64,000 nt of DNA from the IMG/VR virus record IMGVR_UViG_3300022602_003048, positions 29,538-93,537 of that record; one strand, 5' to 3'. The translations under genes were made by a program, and so were the position numbers. Under the pieces are notes generated by a model. The model did no database searches and had not been told where the DNA came from. It saw only the letters and a list, made by a program, of their open reading frames with translations. The stretch is from a virus. Positions 1,925 through 57,231 of this stretch are shown piece after piece (the first letter of the stretch is position 1; each line of letters begins with the position of its first letter).

Positions 1925-2779
1925 TCAGGCCAAGCTAGCATATAAATGTATCTGTAGATTCAGGGTGAATCCATTTTGCGCACAATACTGTGCTGTGTAT
2001 TCGTGATTTCTTTGATTTGCCTTCATATCGAGCAGACCTTCTTCCCAAAAACTGATGACTTCATCTACGGCGCTGCGTTCCTCGATGGTGATATCGTTCT
2101 TTGTGCTACGCATCTGCTTGCTCTTCTGTGGCTCACGATTGTAGATGTTCATGGGACTGATAAACACCTGCTTGCCACTGCCCACGCTAGCATATTCATG
2201 TGCCCAATCTGGGATGCTGCTGTAAGGACTATCTGGATCTGCACTCATGACAAACTTGAGACAATCGGCTCGTTCCATAACATCTGCATTGGGACGCAGA
2301 TACTTGACAGGTTTGCCATCTTTTTCTAGGCATTTAGGACTGCATACCAACGTAGTCGAACTGGGAATATCCTGCCATACTGTGCCATTGCTTTCAATCT
2401 GTGTCCATGCAAAATGATCTTTTATATGATATAGGAAAGCACCTAGGTTTTTTTGCAACATTGGCTCGCCACCAGTTACTACTAATCCGACTTTTTGGCT
2501 AAACCAGTTTGGAATGATATCATCGTGATCATCGAAATAATTGTTTACGACATTCCATATCCTAGCTTCTAGCTCATCAAAAGATAACCAATCGCCGCCA
2601 TCAAAATAAGTATCGCAGAAAGAGCAAGCCAAGTTGCACTTGGCAAGTCTAACGAAAACTGCTGGCTCGCCTCGGTATGGACCTTCGCCTTGGAGTGTGT
2701 AAAAAATACTGGTGACAAAGAGCTTATCACCAGCATCATTGAAATATTTTTGTCCGACAATCTCATTTTTTCCAAACAT
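1925..2779 (-). CDS. queE: 7-carboxy-7-deazaguanine synthase (radical SAM)
   Basis: IFYTLQGEGP, FVRLAKCNLACSFCDT (CxxxCxxC), VTGGEPMLQ, IESNGT, CSPK, C-terminal LQIH. Confidence 0.92.
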   Translation of the reverse strand: MFGKNEIVGQKYFNDAGDKLFVTSIFYTLQGEGPYRGEPAVFVRLAKCNLACSFCDTYFDGGDWLSFDELEARIWNVVNNYFDDHDDIIPNWFSQKVGLVVTGGEPMLQKNLGAFLYHIKDHFAWTQIESNGTVWQDIPSSTTLVCSPKCLEKDGKPVKYLRPNADVMERADCLKFVMSADPDSPYSSIPDWAHEYASVGSGKQVFISPMNIYNREPQKSKQMRSTKNDITIEERSAVDEVISFWEEGLLDMKANQRNHEYTAQYCAQNGFTLNLQIHLYASLA

Positions 2780-3804: not shown

Positions 3805-4487
3805 CGTGGTAGATATCCTTGCTGTAGCTTTATGTTCTCAAAGAACTCATTCTTGGTAGCAGGATCGCTATAAAAAGCACCGCGCAATACTGTGGTCTGT
3901 GTTAGCGAGCTATGTGCCATAATGCCTCGATTCTCACAGCAACCATGCGTGGCTTGTATGTATACAGCAACATCGCTGCTATCTGTTGCCTTCATGATCT
4001 CTCTCGCAATATCATTACAAAGCTCTTCCTGGAGTGTTCCACGACGAGCACACCATTGTGCGATGCGAGTGTACTTACTAAGTCCGATAAGCTTCTTAGC
4101 AGCAATAATGCCGATATAAGATACACCATTTACTGGTTGATGATGATGGCTACACATGCTCTTAAGCTCGCTGCGCACCACTAGCATACCTTCATAAGGT
4201 TCGTTGCTGTTATTTGGAAAGCTAGTAGCATCGGGAGCAGGGTCATATCGACCGCTCATGATCTCCCTGACATACATTTTGGCCAATCGACGCCCTGTGC
4301 CCGTGCTGTTTGGATCATTCTCACGATCGATAACCAAGCTATCTAACACAGCATCAAACCGAGCATGTAACTCATCAATAAGTGGATCAATTTCTTCTGG
4401 TTTTATGTATTTTGAAATATTATCTCCGGCCCAGTAACGGCCCCCGTCTTCTTTTATGCGATTGCGTATAGTTTCTGAAATGCTCAA
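3801..4487 (-). CDS. folE: GTP cyclohydrolase I (TTG start)
   Basis: SMCSHHHQP, GLSKYTR, LQEEL, HGCCENRG motifs; SD GGAG at 4495-4498. Confidence 0.93.
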   Translation of the reverse strand: MSISETIRNRIKEDGGRYWAGDNISKYIKPEEIDPLIDELHARFDAVLDSLVIDRENDPNSTGTGRRLAKMYVREIMSGRYDPAPDATSFPNNSNEPYEGMLVVRSELKSMCSHHHQPVNGVSYIGIIAAKKLIGLSKYTRIAQWCARRGTLQEELCNDIAREIMKATDSSDVAVYIQATHGCCENRGIMAHSSLTQTTVLRGAFYSDPATKNEFFENIKLQQGYLPR

Positions 4488-45031: not shown

Positions 45032-48000
45032 TTAGTGCTTACCTACCAGTACCTCAATGACTCCGATCTTATCTGAATCGTAATCTTCTAGTGCCTTACC
45101 GATTATGCTGCCCAACACTGGATTTTCATCTGCACTAGCTACACCAGCAAACAGACCAACTGTTAGGATGTCGCCCTTTGAGATCTTACCGATGACTTTG
45201 CAAGGAACGCGGCCTGTCAGCGCCACTACTACTGGATGCTCTGCGACTAACTTGCTGTTCATCAAGTGTGCTGGATTGGTCGAAACTACCCCTGCTACTT
45301 TGGTTGTCCTTAGTCCCTTAGCTATAGTGACTTCAAACTCGCCACCGATCATTACCACTGTTCCTGGCTCATAATCCTTATCACCTGCATACATCTCTGC
45401 CAAGTCAGCGTAGTCTGCTGATGTAGCAGTACCATAGACAGTTCCCCATGATAAGCTATTACTGCCTAGGTTATAAGTAGCATTAGCTAATGGTAATATG
45501 TTTTGTGTATTTAAATCACCACCGTTTATGTCAATATGGTTAGCACGCAGCATCACGTGATTATTGGTATTGAATCCTATAGCAAAAACCCTATTATCGC
45601 TGACTCCGTATGACCAAGTAGTGTTATTTGTTGTGTTAGTCCAAGTTAGTAGTTCGGCACTATCTACCGTGCTAGGATTAGCAGCAAAATTAGTAGTGAA
45701 ACTCAAACCTGGATTAGTAGTTCCGCTGCTGATGCTCAGTGAACTGAGTGTTGGGATATCACTAGCTGAGATAGTGCCCCAGATTGGCGCAGCACCATTG
45801 GTTCCATCCCCCGTCTGTACTAAGAATTTCTTAGTAGTAGTAGTGTTTGGCGATAAAAGTGTAGTCGTGTTGGCATTGCTCTGATATGGGATGCTACCTA
45901 ACTGTGTAGTGTTGTTTCCACCGACTAGATTGTTTACAGCAGGAATGTCAGCAGCTACTAATGCACGGAACGCTGCTGTGGTAGGAGTACCACTCGCTGC
46001 TCCAGCATAAACTTGATTGTTGGCCACCGTACCTGCGATTCCGGTTGCTGTGCCATTCAGCGTAGCTGTTATGGTTCCTGCGCTAAAGTTACCACTGCTA
46101 TCTCTCGACACTATGGTGCTTGCTGTATTGGTGCTACCAAAAGCTACACCCGACGGAGCTGCTGAGACTGATCCGTTATTGCCTAGCACTAGCCCAGTAC
46201 CGAGATTTTGCAGATTGCTGAACTGTATGCCGCCCGCAGCTATCTGTACTAACCCACTGGTGACTGTGAAGTTTGTTGGATCATATATGCTGAGTCCTTT
46301 GCTAGGTGTGCTTCCTGGAGCAGCATTGGCAGTCATAACAGTTGATGCGACGGTCTGGCTAGCACTCACTGTATAGGTACCAGCAGCGCCAGAACCTGAA
46401 CCTAACGCTGTGATGATAGTGCCTGCAGTAATACCAGTACCTAGCAGCGTCTGTCCGACAGCTATAGTACCTACTGGTGCCGGTGATGCTGCAACAGTTA
46501 GCGTAGTCCCAGATATAGCACCGGTGAAGTATACAGCAGTACCAAAAGAATACATTATAGTTGCGGAACTGACTGTTTGAGATATGCTTATGGTGTATGT
46601 ACCAGCACCACCGGTTCCTGATCCTAGCGAGGTTACCACAGTACCTGGAGCAACACCTGATCCTGTTATAACCTGTCCCACAGTGATAGTTCCGACAGGT
46701 GCCGGAGTAGTCAGGCTACCAGCAGTACCTGTAGCCACTGTTAGGGTAGTACCAGATATAGTACCCGTGAAATATATGCCCGTAGTGGCGTCGTTTATGG
46801 AAAGCTTTGACTGAGATATAGCAGCAGATGGGCTAACCATGCTGTTTGTTATCCTGCTAGGACCTATCGAGCTGGTTGCGGCAAATGCGGTAGCTGAACC
46901 AGTATAACTAACTGTGAATGCACTAGTAACATCACCAGTCTGGCTAGCACTCACCCATTTGGATCCTAGATAACCTAGTATGTTGTTGGTAGCAGTCGTG
47001 CCCGAATTTACGTCGTTGAGTGTAGACAGGCTAGTGTGTGCATCTACGTAGCTCTTAGTAGCAGCATCTGTTGAAGTGGTTGGAGTAGGTAATCCTGTAA
47101 TAGGATTACCATTCATGCCTATCGAGCTTGGTATGACCGCAGTGCCTATCTGTGAAGTTCCTGCTCCTGCAGCTATGTCTGAACCTGCATTAGCATAAGT
47201 GAACGTGTTAGCAGTGACCGGAGTGACTGCTACACTAGTAACCATGCCCATGATCCCTGTCGCAGTGGTTAGGGTTACATTAGCTCCCCCTGATGTGAGG
47301 CTTACAGTGATAGTACCACCAGTCGTGCCGCTCACTGCTGTAACATAGTATGTCACACCCGCTGTTATACCACCAAATGTGGTTCCTGAGAATACCACGG
47401 CATTGCCTACGGCAGTACCTACGGTAGTAGAAACTGTTATAGTATTTGCAGTAGCAGTAGTAGCAGTAGCGTTGGTAGTTCCTGTGTTGAATCCTGTAGT
47501 TGATATGCCTGATATAGTCACTAACGCATTCAACGCTAACGCATGTGGTTTTTCTGTGGTCACAGTAGCCACACCAGAAGCCCTGGCTATATTCATTATA
47601 GCTATGCTAGTAGTGCTGCTCATCGTGAACATATCCATAGTGCGTGCATATCCATAAGCGTTCACACGTCGAATATCGTTGTCTACATAGTTCTTGGTAG
47701 CAGCATCGGAAGAGATAGTTGGATCTGCTAGATTGTTGATCTTGAAACTGCCCATGTTCATCGCAGCAGTCGCAGCCAACGACCCGTTCCTTGGCATGAA
47801 TCCTGGACCTATAGCTGTAACTGTTGATGTGCTGCTGCTTGGATCTATCCCTAATCTATTGTTGATGTATCCTATAACAGCTGTCTGCACAGGAACTGCC
47901 TGTGAACTGTTTTCTAGCATCTGTGGATCAGTGCTGAATTCGTTTACCGCAACACCCTTGCTGAAACCCAAACCTGATATATTAGAAAGAGATATTGAAG

Positions 48001-51000
48001 AACTTAAAGTTACTATTCCAGTTCCCTGCTGTACGGAAAAATACTTGCCAACACTGAAGTTACCATCTTGGTCAGTTATGGTATAGTATACACGACCCTT
48101 ACCTATTTCTCTCACTTGGTTAGCAGAAGTAGGTGCGTTTACGGGTGGTCCATATATGTCATTAGGTATGTTAGAATCGGCATAACTGCCAGTACCGATG
48201 TTTACGAGATCTGTGTTGGTAGCTCTTAGCACTGATATCTGATAGTTTATCTGTGCGCTAGCACCTGCTTGGAATCCGGCATATAGAGTAGGAGCGACAT
48301 TGTTATAGCTTACGTTGTAGAGAGTAGCAGTTAGCGCAGGTGTTACTGTTATGGTGCTCCATGGGTTTCCGCCTGATGGTGCAGCATATGTGGATACAGT
48401 GTGCAGCGATGTACCCCAGGCAAACTGTAATCCAACCAATGATGAGCTGCCGCCCACTATCCTTATGGTAGTGTCGCCTGATTGTCCCGTGCCCGTCGCG
48501 CTACCTGCGGTAGGATCGACTGTTATAGTAACGTAGCTGTAGGGAGCAGAAGTTGTTAGTATCGAATCTCCAGAAACGATTCCGTTTAAACCTGTTCCAT
48601 TATTGCGTCCTATAACGCTATAGACGTTGCTGTCTCCTGAGAATTGCAGTGCGCTAGTCGGTCTAGTAGTAGTGACTACGCTCACTCCAGTGAATTCAAA
48701 ATTTTCTAAGCTCTGTACTATTATGCTAGTTGTATTTGGAACTGTCGCAAGCAGGCCGTTTCCGTTACTTCCGGGTAATAGTCCGGTAGTGCTTAGATTT
48801 AGTGCATAGACATACTGCTGGAAAGTAGGATTGCCGGCGTAGTTTGCGGTCAGTGTTGAGCTCAGTGTTATAGTAGACGCGACAGAGTTTATGCTAGTGA
48901 TAACAGCAGCAGTAGTCGGTGTACCGGATACGCTCATACCTATCATCAATCCAGTAGTAGTCGCTACACTCAAGACATTTGATCCTGAGGTTCCCGAAAC
49001 GTGTATGCTGGTTATAGCAGTACCGCCAGCGGTTGCTGTCTTTGTGGCACTGTTCACAGTGTAGTTGGTTACAGTAGAAGTTCCAGTAGGAGTGTTAGCA
49101 TGTACTATCTGTATGTTGCTAACATTGAATATAGGTCTGTTCACATTATTCACATATAGAGTGAAGCTACCTGCTGCGTTTGTATAAGTGCCATTAGTAA
49201 ATGCGTTTACTACCTGGAAGAGCGGATATGTTAGTGTTACTGTGTTAGGAACTTCTATCGGGCTCGAACCTTCGGAACTTAGTGCATAAACACCATAGGC
49301 ACACGAGCTATTTAAGCTGCGTATCTGTGCGCCATTTATGGCATAATATGCCCTGTAAGCATAATAGGCAAACAAGCTAACAGCTTCGATCACAGCACCA
49401 TTAGTACCAACGACACCATAGCCCATATCATTTATCTGTGTGAAATCGCTAGCCAAGCATGATCTATTGCCTGCTGTCTGTAGTTCTATAGCTGTTGATG
49501 GAGTTAGTACGTTAGAACCTGATCCAGTATATGACTGTGAATCTGGAGTGTTTAGGTTTAAGTTTAGCGTAGCAGTGCCACCTGTGCTGCCATTCCATGC
49601 GACATAGTTGCTGACAAAATCGACCTCAAATCTAATGCCGCTAGCGATAAACGAGAAAGGAATCTGTGGTGCCCGAACGTTCAATCCGCTCACGTTGATC
49701 GTATATTGGTCAGTCCTTGTGGCTATAGTTGCCTGCAGGTTGCCAGTGAACGCATCGATATACATCCCTCCTGAGAATACCTGTGCATTTATGCTCCTAG
49801 AAAAGGAAGAAGCTTGCTGTATGTAAGGTGACTTAGTGAGTATCTGTCCAATAGGATCTAGGACGATCATGAATCCACCGTGTCCTTGGGCACTCAGCTG
49901 AACTATCCTATTAGCATCATTCAGCATGAACACATCCATGTCTTCGTTATTTTTTGGAGGATTGAATGATGAATCTTGATTTATCACATCATTGATGAGT
50001 TGGAATAGATTCTGCGAAGCAGTGATAGATGCATATTCTGGAGTGGTTATCGTGTAAGTGAATGCAGCACCCGTAGTGGTACCATTCAATACATTATAAG
50101 TGAAGGTAGCACCAGTCACCGATCCTGTGCTGATGTTTAATGGACTATTGCCAGCTACTGCATTAGCATAGCTGGCATATAAAGAAGCTGAAGTTGAAGT
50201 CGTTGAGCCTAGATAATAAGTTTGGCCACTAGCGATAGTGATACCATTGATAGTCATCGAACCTGTGACAGTACCACCTATAGTGACAGATGTTCCTGCA
50301 GGTAGGGCCAATCCCGTCGATGAGAAACTTATAGTAGTTGGCGACCCATAAGTGACCGCTGAAATGGTTCCGGAAGTGCTGCCTATAGCTAGTGGGCTCA
50401 CAGAATTTATAGCGTTAGAATAGCTAGAATAGAGCGTAGCGGTAGTTGCAGTAATCGGATAACCGATATAGTATGTTTGGTTCGCAGCGATAGCTACTCC
50501 GCCTATAGTCATGCTACCTGTTATGCTTGATCCACTTATTGTGATACTAGTTCCTGCAGGCAGCGCCGAAATAGTAGTCGAGAAACCTATACTGTTTGTT
50601 GAATTGTAGGCTACTGATGATAGCGTACCGTTAAAAAATAGCTGTTGCACTGCGCTCTGATATAGCTGTGCAGGTGCTGATCCATTCAGCACAGAAGACA
50701 CGAGAGATCCTATCCTAGTGATAGTAGCTACTGTCTGTGCTAGATGACCTTCGTTAGCCAGCAGCGTATTACCAGAGGTAGTGAAAAAATACTTAGAAGC
50801 AGGATGCAGTGTCTTGTAGTAGCTACCATATAATAGATCATAACCTATGTAATCTATTATCAACCCCACATCCGATGCAAATGTTGTGGTATTATATGGA
50901 TAAGAACCTACCATTGATCCTGTAGCATTAGCTAAAGCAAAAGCAGCTCCTCCTGACGTAGTCGACACAGTGAAGTGCGTAGAATCTACGATGGTCTTCA

Positions 51001-52927
51001 CGTAATAGGTGGTACCAGCGACTATGTTTCCAAAAGTAGTTCCAGTGAAAACGATAGGCATGTTAGCATTTAGATATGTGGTACTGCTAGTAGTTAGATA
51101 ACCAGTTGCTGATGCTGATGCAGTCACCGTTACGGGATACACTGAAGCGATATAAGCCATTATCTCAGCGATAATAAACGATCTATTTGAGTTTAGTACC
51201 CTTTGTGCATTGTAGAAAGAACCTAGATTGGAAACAGTCTTGCTATACATGCTCTTGGTAGGATCTGTTAGATAATGATATCCGAATAGGCTGCTGCTGT
51301 TTGCAGCTAGATTTGCCTTGCCATAGTTGCTGCTTTTAGTGAGTCCATCTATTAGATAATCTCTCCTGAAGAAAGTATTGCCCCATAAGCTTGCGCTCCT
51401 CCCTAATCTCGGCCTAACGATTACACGCCTAGTATCATCGCCTGACAATGTCACATTATTTGGCACACGTAATGGGTAACTTTCGTAGTACTCGCCGCTC
51501 TCTATCCTCACAGTAACCTGTGCAGTAGGCACAGGTTGACCATATTGCAGTGTCTCACCTGCTTGGAAATTGGTCGTAGATAGGTAAGATACCTGATAGG
51601 TTTCAGTATTAGATACGGAATTTATAGTGCCTATATAATCTATAACAGCTAATGCACCGCTAGTAGTACCTAATAATAGCAGTCCTGCACGTACATCAAA
51701 GTTAGCAGTCGCACCTGAACCGCTAACTTTCCTCATGTCAGTTCCGGCACCACCGTTAGTGATAGTCAAGGTAAACTGTGTTCCACTGTTTACACCATAT
51801 ATCGTAGCGCCAGAAAGAGCAGTAGTAGGAGCTTGGCTTACAACAAATGTAACACCGTCCAGGTTTATAGCAGTTACTACAGTATTTGCAGCAAACGCTC
51901 CGGTGCCTGATGCTACATACACAACCATGCCGGTAACTAACCCGATTGTGCTTGATACGGTTATAGTAGTGCCCGAACCACTACCGCTTGTTAGATTAGC
52001 ATAATAGTTAGCTGGAACTGTTGACACGACAGATGATAGAGAAGCTCCTCCTCCGTAGTAGACCGGCTTCTGGTATATTCCGAGCTCTTGTGTTGATGCT
52101 GTTATGATCCTAGCAGCAGCCTGTAAAGCTGCTCCTATGGTCATGTAGGCATAGGCAGGCGCCCTACCTTTCTTGTATTCTGGTATATTGTAATTGAAAT
52201 CGTTTCCGCTAGTTGCACTAACGAATAGATTTACCTTGCTGTAGTTAGTGTTTATATCAACATAATTTTTAGTAGCAGCAGTCGAAGGTAAACTAGTATC
52301 TGTTGGATCAGATGCCAGTATGAGAGAACCAATCATGGTATCTCCTGATTTACCTATCACTTCTTGTTTTTGGGGTACCTGTGTACCACTGGCGCCTGCA
52401 GGAACGCTTAGTGGTCCGTTCATAACGTCACCGCTCATGTTCACGTAGGTATCATCGGCGTAACCTTTGTTTACAGCCAATGATCTAACGTTCACAGCAG
52501 GATTGGCAACTAGGAAGGCAGTAGCATTAGTACCACCGGGTGAGTCTATGTCAGATATAGCATATCCGTTACCATCTAGATTATTTCCAAGCTTTGGGTG
52601 TATGTCAGATACTAAACTAGAACCAGTAGATATCAGTGTTATCTTGTTAGGATCGGTATTATCTATCTGTATACCAGTACCTGCTGTTAGGACCTTTGAT
52701 AGTATAGTGGTGCCCGCATCATTGACGATGAACATAGAATCAGATACTAGATGTCCGTCCCTAGCCTTGTCGTATTCGTTTAATGAAGTGAAAGATATAC
52801 CATCTCCCTGACCGAGGGTAGAATAGAGCTCATTGAAATTTTCATTTGTTTTGTTGAACGCATCTCTTATAGCATCGCCGGTAGCATCATTGCCTTCGAC
52901 CCCAATATTGATTATCTGTCTTACCAT
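45032..52927 (-). CDS. very long tail fibre/virion protein with C-terminal chaperone-like domain
   Basis: 2631 aa; N-terminal [20 protein letters not shown]; DAATK.YVD repeats; C-terminal [23 protein letters not shown]. Confidence 0.85.
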
Positions 52928-52939
52928 CTTGTCTCCACC

Positions 52940-53281
52940 TTATACAGCAATGCTAGTACCGCAACCACAGCTGCTTTTAGCCATCGGATTGTTCACAACC
53001 AACTGGCTACTAATAAAATCGTTTTTGTAATCTATAACGCTGCCTAAAATGTACATCTGGCTGACACCGTCTACTATGAGTGTCTTCCCTTCACCTAAAG
53101 AAATCATCTCATCGATATCAGGAGACCCCTTTTTGGAATAAAGATCGTCATCAGCAGGTTCCCAGAAATACTCAAATCCTGCGCAACCTCCGCCTTTTAA
53201 TCCAAACACTAGATAGGGTTTATCCATCTTTTTTAAGGTGTCTCTTATATGCGTCCTGGCAGATTCTGTTATAGTGATCAT
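52940..53281 (-). CDS. iscA: HesB/IscA Fe-S cluster assembly protein
   Basis: MITITESA, GGGCAGFEY, NPMAKSSCGCGTS; start re-assigned; TAAATA at 53304-53309. Confidence 0.9.
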   Translation of the reverse strand: MITITESARTHIRDTLKKMDKPYLVFGLKGGGCAGFEYFWEPADDDLYSKKGSPDIDEMISLGEGKTLIVDGVSQMYILGSVIDYKNDFISSQLVVNNPMAKSSCGCGTSIAV

Positions 53282-53388
53282 GTTGTTTTTCATCTCTTTA
53301 TGATATTTATTCAATGCAATAATAAAGAATTTTTTTGGCCTACCATATTTATCACTAAATATTTTCACCTAAATAAAGGAGAAAATTT

Positions 53389-53697
53389 ATGGAAGCTCTA
53401 GTCGGAGTTATTCTTGTAGCAATAGTTGTCTACGCCGGGTATAAATTATTAGCAAAGAAGGAAGAAGCTCTTCCTGAAACAGTCGCTGAAGCTAAAGCAG
53501 CAGAAGCCAAGGTAGAAACTGTTGCAGCAGTTGCAGAAATCAAGGCATCGGCTGAAGTTGCAGCACCGGTTGAAATTACAGCGCCAGCAAAGAAGGTACG
53601 CACTGCGAAACCAAAGGCTGAAAAGGCAAAGCCAGCATCGAAGGCAAAGCCAGAAACTGTTGCTAAGAAAGCCGGTCGTCCTAAGAAGACTGCTTGA
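53389..53697 (+). CDS. membrane-anchored Ala/Lys-rich (histone H1-like) protein
   Basis: N-terminal TM helix, AKPKAEKAKP repeats, GRPKK end; SD AAGGAG. Confidence 0.7.
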   Translation: MEALVGVILVAIVVYAGYKLLAKKEEALPETVAEAKAAEAKVETVAAVAEIKASAEVAAPVEITAPAKKVRTAKPKAEKAKPASKAKPETVAKKAGRPKKTA

Positions 53698-54694
53698 TAA
53701 ATTCAGAATAAAGTCGGAGGCTAGCTAGATTCTTAGCCTTTGATTCGCACATGATATCAAAATCATCGAGAAACCCTAGGGCCCACTGATTAGCTGCTGC
53801 ATTCCAGTAGTAGTTAGAATGGGCCCTAAGTTTTTGTTTCTTGTAGCCCTGTTCTAATAGCAGTTGCATATCTGGAGCAGTAGTCAATGAGTGCCCATCC
53901 AAGTCAGTCTCACGAGAGACAGAATAATGTAGAGTAGGCCGAACACCGCGCCAGCTATCCAAAACCCTTCTCGTGCGGTCATCTTTGTGTTGAATGTATT
54001 CCCCTGTCTTGATCCAATGATGGTGGATATCAAGAACGATAGGAACGACATCACTAATAGCGAGACAATCATCAAGTCCATGTGTATTTTCCTCGTTTTC
54101 GATCGTTATGGTATTGCGGGCCTCGGGACTCAATCGGCCTAATACCTTGCGTATACCTTCGTGACCTTGCCTGCCGGCGATATGCACATTACATTTAAAA
54201 TCTTGGAATTTCTGGCCATAGCCCATCCAACGTATCATATCTACATGATATTCAAACTCTTCTATTGAGCGTTCAACAACATCTTCTCGATCACTTGCAA
54301 GAACAGTAAATTGGCCAGGATGAAAAGACAGACGTACATCATTGTGTCTGCTGATTTCTCCAATCCGTTTAAATCCTCGCTCTGCATATGTTTTAACGTC
54401 TGTTCTATGCCAAAAGTAATTCCAATTAGATTCTGTATAAACAGGAAGAATATCGCTACCAAGGCGAACCATACGAAGGGATTCATCTAACGCTCCTACA
54501 CGCTGCACCAATCTATTTACTGCTTCTATGTTATGGGTCATTAGGTCCCATAACTTCTGTTCTGCTACTTCTCGTTTTTGGCGGTTGAGCCAAGCAACAG
54601 TCGTAGTCTTGCAATTTAGTTCTGGATCAGCAGCAATACCCTTAGGAGTATCGTCAGACCATTTACAAGCGAAACCTATGCGTTTAATTGTCAT
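53681..54694 (-). CDS. uvsE: UV damage endonuclease UvdE/UvsE
   Basis: RIGFACK, RLGSDILP, RLSFHPGQF, IENEE, LDIHHHW, HYS, AHS, DIMCESK.KN. Confidence 0.92.
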   Translation of the reverse strand: MTIKRIGFACKWSDDTPKGIAADPELNCKTTTVAWLNRQKREVAEQKLWDLMTHNIEAVNRLVQRVGALDESLRMVRLGSDILPVYTESNWNYFWHRTDVKTYAERGFKRIGEISRHNDVRLSFHPGQFTVLASDREDVVERSIEEFEYHVDMIRWMGYGQKFQDFKCNVHIAGRQGHEGIRKVLGRLSPEARNTITIENEENTHGLDDCLAISDVVPIVLDIHHHWIKTGEYIQHKDDRTRRVLDSWRGVRPTLHYSVSRETDLDGHSLTTAPDMQLLLEQGYKKQKLRAHSNYYWNAAANQWALGFLDDFDIMCESKAKNLASLRLYSEFIKQSS

Positions 54695-55142
54695 AGTTTA
54701 TAATAACATGTTTAGATTGTTTGTCAAGCTGAGGATATCCTAAATAACGACGCAGTTCCTTGTCCTGCGGTTCGAATCTCTCTCCTTTGAAGAAGATGCG
54801 ATAGCTTTCGCTGCCATATCGACCGATGCCATAGAGTTTAGAGGCATCGTCAAAATCCCACCAAACTAGGAAGTCAGCAGTCATCCTACGCAGGCGATTC
54901 TCCCTCACATTCCCCATACCAAGAGGCCAGATGATTTCTTTAACCTCTTCAGGAGTGCTATCCCAAAATGCCGTAGGGTTGGGCCACTTGTGTAGGAATA
55001 TAGGAAGCACTGTTTTAACAGGCTTGCGCCCAGTTTGGTTGAGCATGATGACAGCGACCATATGTTGCCAGATACGATCTGCCCTATCCTCGGCAGGCAG
55101 CTGTTCTTGGACCATCAGGTTGTCGAGTAAAGGCTCAATCAA
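54684..55142 (-). CDS. MBD4-like HhH DNA glycosylase
   Basis: W...VAVIMLNQT, LYGIGRYGSESYRIF, PQDKEL (catalytic Asp position). Confidence 0.82.
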   Translation of the reverse strand: MIEPLLDNLMVQEQLPAEDRADRIWQHMVAVIMLNQTGRKPVKTVLPIFLHKWPNPTAFWDSTPEEVKEIIWPLGMGNVRENRLRRMTADFLVWWDFDDASKLYGIGRYGSESYRIFFKGERFEPQDKELRRYLGYPQLDKQSKHVIINYDN

Positions 55143-55374
55143 GTGTGCGACCCTCCGCTGCTAGACGTAGCAATATCTTATAATTGTCCCAAGCTTTCTT
55201 CACTGCTGGATTGTTCATGCGTACCCAATTTTCCCGTTCAGTCATCGCACGATATTCGCCTGGATCTCGGTAGTATTCTTGAATTTTGAATCCGTCTTCG
55301 GGATCAAATTGATATGTCTTATCAGCAGACAAGTTAGCCTGTTCAGTAAGTTGTTTTATCTTCTGTTCGTTCAT
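55135..55374 (-). CDS. hypothetical protein
   Basis: 79 aa; NPAVKKAWDNYK..L.L motif. Confidence 0.6.
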   Translation of the reverse strand: MNEQKIKQLTEQANLSADKTYQFDPEDGFKIQEYYRDPGEYRAMTERENWVRMNNPAVKKAWDNYKILLRLAAEGRTLD

Positions 55375-56231
55375 AGGTAATAATATTCCTTGTTGGCTGG
55401 GTCTTTCAATCTACTATGTAGTTTGTATTCTGATATGTTTAATTCTAACATAGCCTGTTTAAGAGTGTCAAATGTTCTGGACTCGGCAACAATCTTTCTT
55501 GCCCTACCATTTTCACTACCAGCACATTTGCCTTTTCTGCCACGACTACTATTCTCAAACACTGCTTTACGCTTTTCTTCTGTCCAGTTTGCTCTTGTTT
55601 CTAGAGCCTTCAGTCTTGCTAATGCTTCTGTTTCGGGGTCACGATTCTCTACCCCTTTACGGGCTACTTCTTTCCTGCGTTCAGAACCCATACGCTCTTT
55701 ACCTAAACGGGCACTACGCTTTCTATCTTCTGGGTCACGAGCCTTTACACCCTCTACCATCTTGGGTATATTGTTTCGCAACTTCTCTTTTAATTGCCGA
55801 CCCTCTTCGGTCTGATACCATTCTTTAGTTTTGCTATGGACATTATCTAATAATGCTTTCTTTTCTTCTTCTGTCCTATTTGCCCAGACTTGTTTGATTT
55901 GATTACTAAATTCCTGACGGCGTTCTTCTGTCCAACCCGCTTTAGTATCTCCACCTATTACATCTTTGGCTACATTATAGAAGTTATCTGAATAGTAAGC
56001 ATTGACTTTATCTAAATGGAACTTTTCACGCTCTAATAGATACTTTCTATCTTCAACTTCAACATACTCAAGAATGGTTCGTGTAAAGTTTTCTATCCCG
56101 TGCTTCTTTATAGCTCTTTGAAAAACTTTACCAGACCCGATATAGCCATCTTCTGTTGTTCCGGCGTGTGAACCAATATACTTTTTACCGTTAAGCATAT
56201 TGGTCCATTCGTAAATAAATCCATAATACAT
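55371..56231 (-). mobile_element. free-standing GIY-YIG homing endonuclease (Seg-like)
   Basis: GFIYEWTN..NGKKYIGSH...DGYIGSG, NF.R.ILE, FYN; basic helical tail; own TAAATA at 56257-56262. Confidence 0.85.
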
Positions 56232-56269
56232 AGTTCGTCCTTTGCTACTAACTATGTATTTATGCAAAC

Positions 56270-56776
56270 TTACTCAAAACCTTCAAATAAGTCCTCGTTC
56301 CATTCACGATGACCTTCTCTAAATGCCATATTTGACTGGGTTTCACGGACTTCGACTCTATAGCACCAAAGTCTCTGTGCTTCACCGGGCCCCCACATAT
56401 CTGGAATATAGACAGCATTTACATATTTGTAAAGCATATCGCTTAATCCCTCGCAACCTAATTTAGGCAGGATAGTGAGTTTAGCCATCTTCTTTTCTTG
56501 TAGAAGTTTGTATGTTTCAAGTTCCGGGTCATCAGAACTGACCAGAAGGGTATGGTCAAATTTGTCTTCCAGCTGTGCCTTTAGTTCTTTCAGACCGCCG
56601 TAATCAGCAGCCCAATTGCGCACGTCTAAATCATTGGTGCCAAAGTAAAACTTCATGCTAAATGAATAACCATGGATTAGATTGCAGTGGCTATCTGCTC
56701 TCCACTGGCGGTAAGCGCAAGGGAAGGCGTCGTGGTATTCTTTAGTGCTGGTATATTTGTAAACGATCGGTGTCAT
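56270..56776 (-). CDS. queD: 6-carboxy-tetrahydropterin synthase
   Basis: CAYRQWRADSHCNLIHGY, DYGGLK, FDHT, GCE, VEVRET..N. Confidence 0.88.
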   Translation of the reverse strand: MTPIVYKYTSTKEYHDAFPCAYRQWRADSHCNLIHGYSFSMKFYFGTNDLDVRNWAADYGGLKELKAQLEDKFDHTLLVSSDDPELETYKLLQEKKMAKLTILPKLGCEGLSDMLYKYVNAVYIPDMWGPGEAQRLWCYRVEVRETQSNMAFREGHREWNEDLFEGFE

Positions 56777-56850
56777 GCTTTCACTCCTATGTCAATATAG
56801 CATAGGCTGCAGAATTTCTAAAGCGGGATGAAGCCCGGAGTGCCGCTGTA
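56777..56850 (-). ncRNA. candidate cis-regulatory RNA (riboswitch-like) in the queD leader
   Basis: AGCGG/CCGCT stem; loop CACTCC complementary to SD-containing GGAGTG; CCTATG/CATAGG hairpin; alternative CGGG/CCCG stem. Confidence 0.55.
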
Positions 56851-56862
56851 ATTATTTAACAA

Positions 56863-56891
56863 GTATAACAAAGTTGACACAGGAAATCAAC
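56863..56891 (-). promoter_or_regulatory. sigma70-type promoter of queD
   Basis: TTGATT-N17-TATACT with extended -10 TG. Confidence 0.65.
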
Positions 56892-57231
56892 CTTCTTTTC
56901 TTATGTCGTTTATCTCTCGATGCATTATCTTGATCTCAGCGATAACTTCCTTTAGATTATACTGAGACCTGTCCAATATGGTAGCGATAGTAGCGATAGT
57001 GTATATGATCCATAACCACCACACGACTCCGAACACTAAGAAGAACACTATTATGCCATCTACGATGAGATTCCAATCTCGTTCTCCGGTCATATAGAGA
57101 GCAAGCACGGAAAGCACCAGAACAAAGGGTATGATCTTGGCGAATCTATCCCAGATGATAGCTTGCCAAACTATGAGTTTTGGCGCCGATGCGGAGAAAA
57201 AACTCCTCATTTTTTTGATTGAACGTCTCAT
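56887..57231 (-). CDS. two-TM membrane protein
   Basis: Two hydrophobic helices plus coiled tail; TATAAATA 5 nt before ATG. Confidence 0.65.
   Translation of the reverse strand: MRRSIKKMRSFFSASAPKLIVWQAIIWDRFAKIIPFVLVLSVLALYMTGERDWNLIVDGIIVFFLVFGVVWWLWIIYTIATIATILDRSQYNLKEVIAEIKIMHREINDIRKEG

Follow-up and report, generated by a model that had tools for sequence, protein, structure and literature searches.

A putative cis-regulatory RNA resembling a riboswitch precedes queD in uncultured lake phages

Comparison with related phage sequences supports the view that the leader of the queD-like gene in the window (the whole 64,000-nucleotide stretch analyzed here) is a conserved, structured, and queD-specific cis-regulatory RNA that resembles a riboswitch. 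The reading that we favor, with a probability of roughly 55%, is that the leader is a preQ1-I-like pseudoknot aptamer coupled to a translational ON platform, with ligand binding and the direction of switching both deduced from conserved sequence patterns. A preliminary description of the same DNA had already proposed a riboswitch-like queD leader; the conserved, structured, and queD-specific nature of the leader stood, whereas the architecture proposed for it did not.

The leader is linked to queD in related phages

The window belongs to a 93.5-kb IMG/VR viral contig from lake water with an estimated completeness of 24%, and the length and completeness together point to a jumbo phage as the source. 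The queD-like gene, its 3′ neighbor, and two further pathway genes are located as follows:

56270..56776, minus strand: queD-like gene (PTPS family, 168 aa; start codon at 56776-56774)
55371-56267, minus strand: GIY-YIG (SegE-like) endonuclease ORF (298 aa), directly 3′ of queD
1925-2779, minus strand: QueE-like radical SAM enzyme gene, same contig, ∼52 kb from queD
about 3831-4337, minus strand: FolE gene, same contig, ∼52 kb from queD

The queD-like product matches the Pfam PTPS family (5.7e-16) and the QueD-like PHROG (2.6e-34), and it scores 33.7 bits against NCBIfam QueD, below the cutoff of 89. The leader sequence quoted in the preliminary description lies on the minus strand at 56777-56850, directly 5′ of the ATG at 56776-56774, and it is GC rich within an AT-rich region as described there (0.55 in the aptamer part versus 0.25 in the upstream spacer). 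Other genes of the window include a very long ORF of 2631 aa (45032-52927, minus strand), a gene for an iron-sulfur cluster biosynthesis-like protein (52940-53368), and a DNA repair pair (53681-55142, minus strand) that comprises a UvdE UV endonuclease (337 aa) and an HhH-GPD glycosylase-like protein (152 aa); this pair is found again near queD in relatives.

A search of IMG/VR with the QueD protein returned more than 591 matching stretches, from which the best 80 loci (85 to 97% identity) were taken. The same leader was present at 80 of the 81 related queD loci, and the lone exception has no upstream DNA. Another 120 stretches came from a pattern scan for the leader, and the pooled set contained 162 distinct instances. 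A queD-like ORF directly follows the leader in 153 of these 162, and in the remaining instances a small ORF or a homing endonuclease gene intervenes before queD. In two relatives (L185 and L194), the insertion between the leader Shine-Dalgarno (SD) sequence and queD is a 282-aa ORF for a putative homing endonuclease, which splits the predicted switch from its gene.

A covariance model of the leader, made from the alignment of the relatives, detected a single copy in the window (59.6 bits, with the runner-up at 10.2 bits). Five related records, including a complete 364-kb genome, contain one strong copy each (46 to 66 bits), and all other matches score ≤14.5 bits. In the window and in these five records, the strong copy always lies 5′ of queD. 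The QueE-like and FolE genes of the window carry no leader copy; in three relatives (G001-G003), the QueE-like and FolE genes lie within 2 to 5 kb of queD.

The surroundings of queD vary among the relatives. At loci L002-L201, the 3′ neighbor is glycosyltransferase-like in 54 cases and QueE-like in 30, and the other neighbors encode a methyltransferase, an NAD epimerase, a B12 radical SAM protein, an FAD oxidoreductase, a KDO8P/DAHP-type synthase, MazG, or YhhQ, the last of which belongs to a preQ0/preQ1 transporter family. This pathway context, with FolE and a QueE-like enzyme in the window and QueE-like or YhhQ genes after queD in relatives, agrees with the riboswitch reading. The complete relative (G001, the record of locus L051; 364 kb with terminal repeats) has genes for FolE, QueD, a QueE-like enzyme, and a YhhQ-family protein, and no match to QueC or TGT/DpdA was found in it. 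Thus, a route to preQ1 is not evident there, and the ligand need not be preQ1.

Searches beyond the uncultured relatives gave no further copies. The locus and a consensus-like leader had no real blastn match among 50,697 phage records, and in the four closest cultured phages (ACP17, X1, R5C, and Phosso), the region upstream of queD gave no match to the covariance model. Bacterial genomes were taken from the phyla of a Bacteroidota, a Methylotenera, and an actinobacterial MAG. In these 5 + 453 = 458 genomes, the motif was not found by the covariance model, for which the best scores were 23.5 and 28.2 bits; the 28.2-bit match and one 23.5-bit match (G009) lie inside ORFs on the other strand, and the second 23.5-bit match belongs to G057. 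A pattern scan of the bacterial genomes yielded no full motif among the at least 120 chance-level matches listed, a result that does not imply absence.

Covariation of two helices points to an H-type pseudoknot

The elements of the leader, all on the minus strand, are given below in the 5′ to 3′ direction of the RNA, together with the promoter-like sequences that precede or overlap it:

56862..56890, minus strand: sigma70-like site TTGATT-17-TATACT, upstream of the leader
56859-56851, minus strand: AT-rich TTAAATAAT box after the sigma70-like site, 4 nt before P1
56843..56847, minus strand: P1 5′ strand AGCGG, pairs with 56826-56822
56836..56842, minus strand: loop L1, CACUCC(G), pyrimidine-rich; family consensus yCUU(u)
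56832..56835, minus strand: P2 5′ strand GGCU, within the P1 loop
56827..56831, minus strand: loop L2, UCAUC; its last base, an invariant C (56827), immediately precedes the P1 3′ strand
56822..56826, minus strand: P1 3′ strand CCGCU, partner of AGCGG
56822-56794, minus strand: internal sigma70-like site TTTAGA-17-TATATT, inside the leader
56809..56821, minus strand: loop L3, an A-rich tail UUAGAAAU followed by invariant UCUGC
56805..56808, minus strand: P2 3′ strand AGCC, the predicted switching strand, common to P2 and the sequestor hairpin
56786..56806, minus strand: sequestor hairpin CCUAUG-CUAUAUUGA-CAUAGG, with its first CC in P2 and its last AGG in the SD
56782..56788, minus strand: SD sequence AGGAG, with GGAGUG at 56787-56782

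Folded on its own, the leader is unexceptional (minimum free energy [MFE], −20 kcal/mol; z = −0.45), and its MFE structure does not contain the conserved P1. The evidence for structure therefore rests on comparison with the relatives, among which 134 distinct aptamer cores were the basis for the P1 and invariant-column counts. P1, the AGCGG/CCGCU pairing noticed earlier in the window, pairs in all 134 sequences (100%), with compensatory changes at three of the five pairs; variants include AGUGG/CCACU, AGAGG/CCUCU, ACCGG/CCGGU, and UGCGG/CCGCA. The observed value was matched by 0 of 500 shuffles, and shifted registers pair in just 41 to 60%.

The preliminary description missed a second conserved helix, P2, in which GGCU (56835-56832) pairs with AGCC (56808-56805). 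Pairing in P2 was counted by script because MAFFT left this helix out of register. Its two strands form 46 helix types among the relatives, including GGCU/AGCC, GGCA/UGCC, GGCG/CGCC, GGUG/CACC, GACAU or GGCAU/AUGUC, GGCAU/AUGCC, GACUU/AAGUC, GACGC/GUGUC, and ACGAC/GUCGU. The loop-tail duplex energy is −5.25 kcal/mol for true partners versus −3.97 ± 0.11 kcal/mol for swapped ones. The variable pair beside GGC/GCC is formed in 45 of the 52 in-register sequences, compared to 25.3 expected (chi-square P = 8e-13, not corrected for phylogeny). Covariation among the queD leaders of related phages, which the preliminary description had named as a check on its proposal, is thus present in both P1 and P2. 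G·U pairs, as in GACGC/GUGUC and UGUCAUC/GAUGGCA, match the queD sense strand only, which indicates a constraint on RNA rather than DNA.

Across the 134 sequences, 12 columns are invariant and 10 more are nearly so, most of them unpaired, and the flanks are variable. Among the invariant positions are the C that precedes the P1 3′ strand, three tail A's, and UCUGC (L3 columns A32, A34, A36, T38, C39, G41, and C42), as well as the top GG/CC pairs of P1. The comparison establishes the P1, P2, and sequestor helices and their overlap. Taken together, P1 and P2 would constitute an H-type pseudoknot, although we infer their simultaneous formation, which is beyond the reach of covariation.

The P2 3′ strand is reused in masks over the ribosome site

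The P2 3′ strand is reused in three or more types of expression platform. Class 1, which includes the window, has the arrangement nGCC-UAUG...CAUA-GG(AG), in which a hairpin contains the CC of P2 and covers the AGG of the SD. The CCUAUG/CAUAGG stem of this hairpin had been pointed out in the window and proved to be real; it is nearly invariant in 95 class-1 relatives, and rare variants retain the pairing (CCUAUA/UAUAGG, CCUGUG/CAUAGG, and CUCUAUU/AAUAGAG). Since the hairpin hardly varies, it shows little covariation of its own. A CGGG/CCCG stem, suggested earlier as a competitor, is not conserved among the relatives. The overlap between P2 and the hairpin amounts to only 2 nt in class 1, and one relative (L171) has no overlap.

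In class 2, UGUCAUC or UGCCAUUG pairs with GAUGGCA or CAAUGGCA, the start codon region. This helix is 6 to 8 bp long, its 6 inner pairs are formed in 36 of 36 sequences, and it shows compensation between C-G and U-A while tolerating a GUG start and differing second codons. In class 3, UGUCU pairs with AGACA beside the SD.

When the P2 3′ strand was blocked in folding calculations, the platform MFE changed from −7.8 to −4.7 kcal/mol in the window and from a mean of −8.7 to −4.0 kcal/mol in the family, so that ∼4.7 kcal/mol of structure was lost at the ribosome-binding site. The unpaired probability of the SD in the family rose from 0.36 to 0.63. Modeled accessibility of the start codon showed no mean rise, and the lower of the SD and AUG accessibilities went from 0.27 to 0.36 (54 sequences up and 30 down). 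Because the P2 3′ strand is the strand that forms the mask over the SD or start codon, the knot should free the ribosome site, which corresponds to an ON state.

Across the family, complementarity between L1 and the SD is compositional

The preliminary description centered on the complementarity of CACUCC in L1 to GGAGUG at the SD, which it likened to the SD-sequestering pseudoknots of preQ1-II and preQ1-III. The conserved fold is instead a preQ1-I-like H-type knot formed through GGCn/nGCC. The 6-bp complement is indeed perfect in the window, but it does not covary across the family, where L1:SD complementarity is 5.02 for true partners versus 5.09 for swapped ones. As true partners do no better than swapped ones, the complementarity is best read as a CU-rich loop that faces a purine-rich SD, i.e., as composition. 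Scored as an in-register extension of P2, the pairing reaches 2.73, compared to 2.86 ± 0.15 for shuffled L1. In the subclade of the window, the second base of L1 changes together with the base that follows GGAG (G and C, respectively, in 5 of 7 distinct sequences, and A and U in the window), which is suggestive.

These values bear on an OFF switch of the preQ1-II/III kind, in which the knot would let CACUCC of L1 pair with GGAGUG of the SD, thereby lengthening P2 across the embedded hairpin and shutting off translation. Such a switch would account for the direct adjoining of the Watson-Crick complement to P2 in the window, for the subclade co-variation, and for an L1 complementarity to the SD that exceeds that of letter-shuffled L1 (5.0 versus 4.0), and OFF logic would suit an end-product ligand. 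It is difficult to reconcile with true partners that pair no better than swapped ones, with an in-register extension that does not rise above the shuffle, and with class-2 leaders, which have no hairpin to bring the SD beside P2. Moreover, 0 nt would separate P1 from an 11-bp composite helix, an arrangement in which a compact pocket is probably sterically disfavored. We consider the OFF switch quite unlikely.

Promoters and the predicted transcript start

The sigma70 promoter reported just upstream of the leader corresponds to the site TTGATT-17-TATACT, which is present but is a consensus match only (9/12). Among the relatives, the end of a TATAAATA-like or TATAAT box usually falls 5 to 9 nt before P1, and the transcript is therefore likely to begin with the aptamer. 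The window shows no enrichment of TATAAATA (3 occurrences versus 4.3 expected). Lake-water metatranscriptome contigs are unbroken over the leader (56326-57216), although contigs cannot show the start, the strand, or the origin of the RNA. Contigs from three lake metatranscriptome runs all end at about 57202-57217, within 15 nt, just inside a 114-aa ORF upstream of the leader, and an exact TATAAATA is located at 57244-57237. These contig ends may represent a transcript start.

A leader at the very 5′ end of its predicted transcript could also be an RNA structure that works independently of any ligand, as a 5′ stabilizer against RNases, a ribosome standby site or enhancer, or a thermosensor, and the origin of the samples in lake water would be compatible with such a role. 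However, a stabilizer would need neither 12 invariant, mostly unpaired bases nor a sequestor that always reuses one strand of the pseudoknot. We regard this explanation as rather improbable.

The promoter scan also lists the internal site TTTAGA-17-TATATT (9/12, with TG). Class-1 relatives have TTTACA-17-TGnTATAAT at this position, and the hairpin loop contains its −10 box. Transcription from the internal site would yield an RNA without the aptamer. The conservation might accordingly be thought to act on DNA, as an internal promoter flanked by an inverted-repeat operator, CCTATG/CATAGG, which could coexist with an RNA switch; the hairpin loop, including TAWAAT, is unusually conserved in 95 sequences. 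This idea leaves the covariation of P1 and P2 and the sense-strand G·U pairs unexplained, and class-2 and class-3 leaders retain L3 but are without the −10 box. The window contains no other TGNTATAAT (4.2 expected) and no TTTAC-N17-19-TANAAT. We judge the DNA-level explanation to be very improbable.

A predicted switch that activates translation

In the ON-switch reading that we favor, the first ∼45 nt of the queD mRNA would fold as an H-type pseudoknot that consists of P1, a loop with L1, GGCU, and L2 ending in the invariant C, the A-rich L3 with UCUGC, and AGCC. An aptamer for a small, guanine-like molecule is suggested by the invariant unpaired bases, by the likeness to preQ1-I, and by the restriction of the leader to queD; candidate ligands would be guanine, a pterin intermediate, or a 7-deazaguanine (preQ0, preQ1, or CDG). 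The P2 3′ strand is predicted to double as the 5′ arm of a mask over the ribosome site, which would be the CCUAUG/CAUAGG hairpin over the SD in the window and a 6- to 8-bp helix over the start codon in other lineages. Without the knot, the ribosome site would be masked; a locked knot would take the arm away, so that the SD and AUG open and translation is turned on. We infer that knot and mask are mutually exclusive, which makes the locked knot the ON state. In the window, L1 (CACUCC) may additionally mask the SD (GGAGUG).

The structure and conservation of the leader could also belong to a translational operator bound by a protein, e.g., QueD itself or a RegA- or gp32-like repressor, with no small molecule sensed. 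Genes for a family B DNA polymerase and for baseplate proteins (baseplate-wedge genes of the T4-like phage kind) are present on the same contig, the leader is single copy and gene specific in the manner of autoregulatory operators, and no Rfam riboswitch model matches it, all of which would be in keeping with such an operator. Its invariant bases, which comprise the C preceding the P1 3′ strand, the G-C pair that tops P1, and those of the A-rich tail, nevertheless occupy the positions of the preQ1-I ligand pocket, and a constant aptamer with swapped platforms is the usual pattern of riboswitches. A protein operator is therefore unlikely in our estimation.

It is conceivable, and we propose it tentatively and with some doubt, that the leader represents a new phage-restricted riboswitch class that has the preQ1-I fold, recognizes another pathway metabolite (CDG, preQ0, CPH4/H2NTP, or guanine), and activates translation. 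To our knowledge, few riboswitches are known from phages. An ON switch for a biosynthetic gene is unusual, which counts against the ON reading, as do the short overlap between P2 and the class-1 hairpin, the scant variation of that hairpin, and the modeled start codon accessibility with no mean rise. No natural ON preQ1 switch is described in a review of these riboswitches (PMC11625349). With a riboswitch of such a new class, a jumbo phage could adjust 7-deazaguanine or pterin synthesis to the metabolic state of its host cell. The identity of the ligand would show the use to which FolE, QueD, and QueE are put in these abundant lake phages, as one complete relative has no match to QueC or DpdA. 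With an aptamer of ∼45 nt, very clear covariation, and hundreds of natural variants, the proposal is easy to test, and a compact ON switch would be a possible addition to the RNA toolbox.

Comparison with known systems

No description of the queD-leader motif was found in the literature searched. An Rfam scan, also named as a check in the preliminary description, gave no preQ1 family match; at E ≤ 10, there was no PreQ1 or other relevant match in 2.5 kb, in 121 nt of the window, or in 121 nt of a relative (L026) with an AGAGG/CCUCU P1. The likeness to preQ1-I is therefore architectural only.

The preQ1-I riboswitch (RF00522; types I to III, e.g., B. subtilis queC, T. tengcongensis, and E. coli) serves as the architectural comparator. 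It features a 5-bp P1, a specificity C, a G-C pair that tops P1, and an A-rich tail, and the specificity cytosine lies directly 5′ of the P1 3′ strand, in the context UC in type I and AC in types II and III (PMC11625349). The queD leader likewise appears as a small H-type pseudoknot. Its P1 has 5 bp and is topped by an invariant G-C pair, an invariant C (mostly after U, which is the type I context) immediately precedes the P1 3′ strand, and an A-rich tail begins where P1 ends. A short P2 joins the P1 loop to this tail, and the leader is located before a gene of the queuosine/7-deazaguanine pathway. It differs in that the RF00522 covariance model gives no match at E ≤ 10 and in that the leader is found only in uncultured lake phages. 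In contrast to preQ1-I types I and III, which have UU on the P1 5′ strand, L1 of the queD leader is 4 to 9 nt long and starts with yC (UC, CC, or AC), with C-N-C at its start in the subclade of the window. L3 is 13 nt long with the extra invariant UCUGC, and P2 is 4 to 7 bp long and lies 20 to 40 nt upstream of the SD. In preQ1-I, the SD is in or next to the P2 3′ strand, which yields an OFF switch, whereas the P2 3′ strand of the queD leader is an anti-SD or anti-AUG strand, with ON as the predicted outcome.

The preQ1-II and preQ1-III riboswitches (RF01054 and RF02680) share with the queD leader the context of a queuosine-precursor gene and, on the preliminary description's idea, a pseudoknot, an embedded hairpin, and a pairing partner for the SD. 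The queD leader departs from them in having no Rfam match, no evident HLout topology or U-A-U triples, and no covariation of L1 with the SD.

Two systems outside the preQ1 families offer partial parallels. The add adenine riboswitch of Vibrio vulnificus is a translational ON switch in which the ligand-stabilized aptamer captures a strand that would otherwise mask the SD or start codon. Capture of a masking strand by aptamer folding is likewise predicted for the queD leader, whereas the add fold, a three-way junction purine aptamer, is unrelated. The leader of T4 gene 32 mRNA has a 5′ H-type pseudoknot that acts in translational control as an operator for the gp32 protein; it resembles the queD leader in being a pseudoknot with which a phage mRNA begins and differs from it in having no sequence similarity and no shared switching strand. 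Like riboswitches in general, the queD leader combines a conserved, covarying putative aptamer with interchangeable platforms and a single linked gene function.
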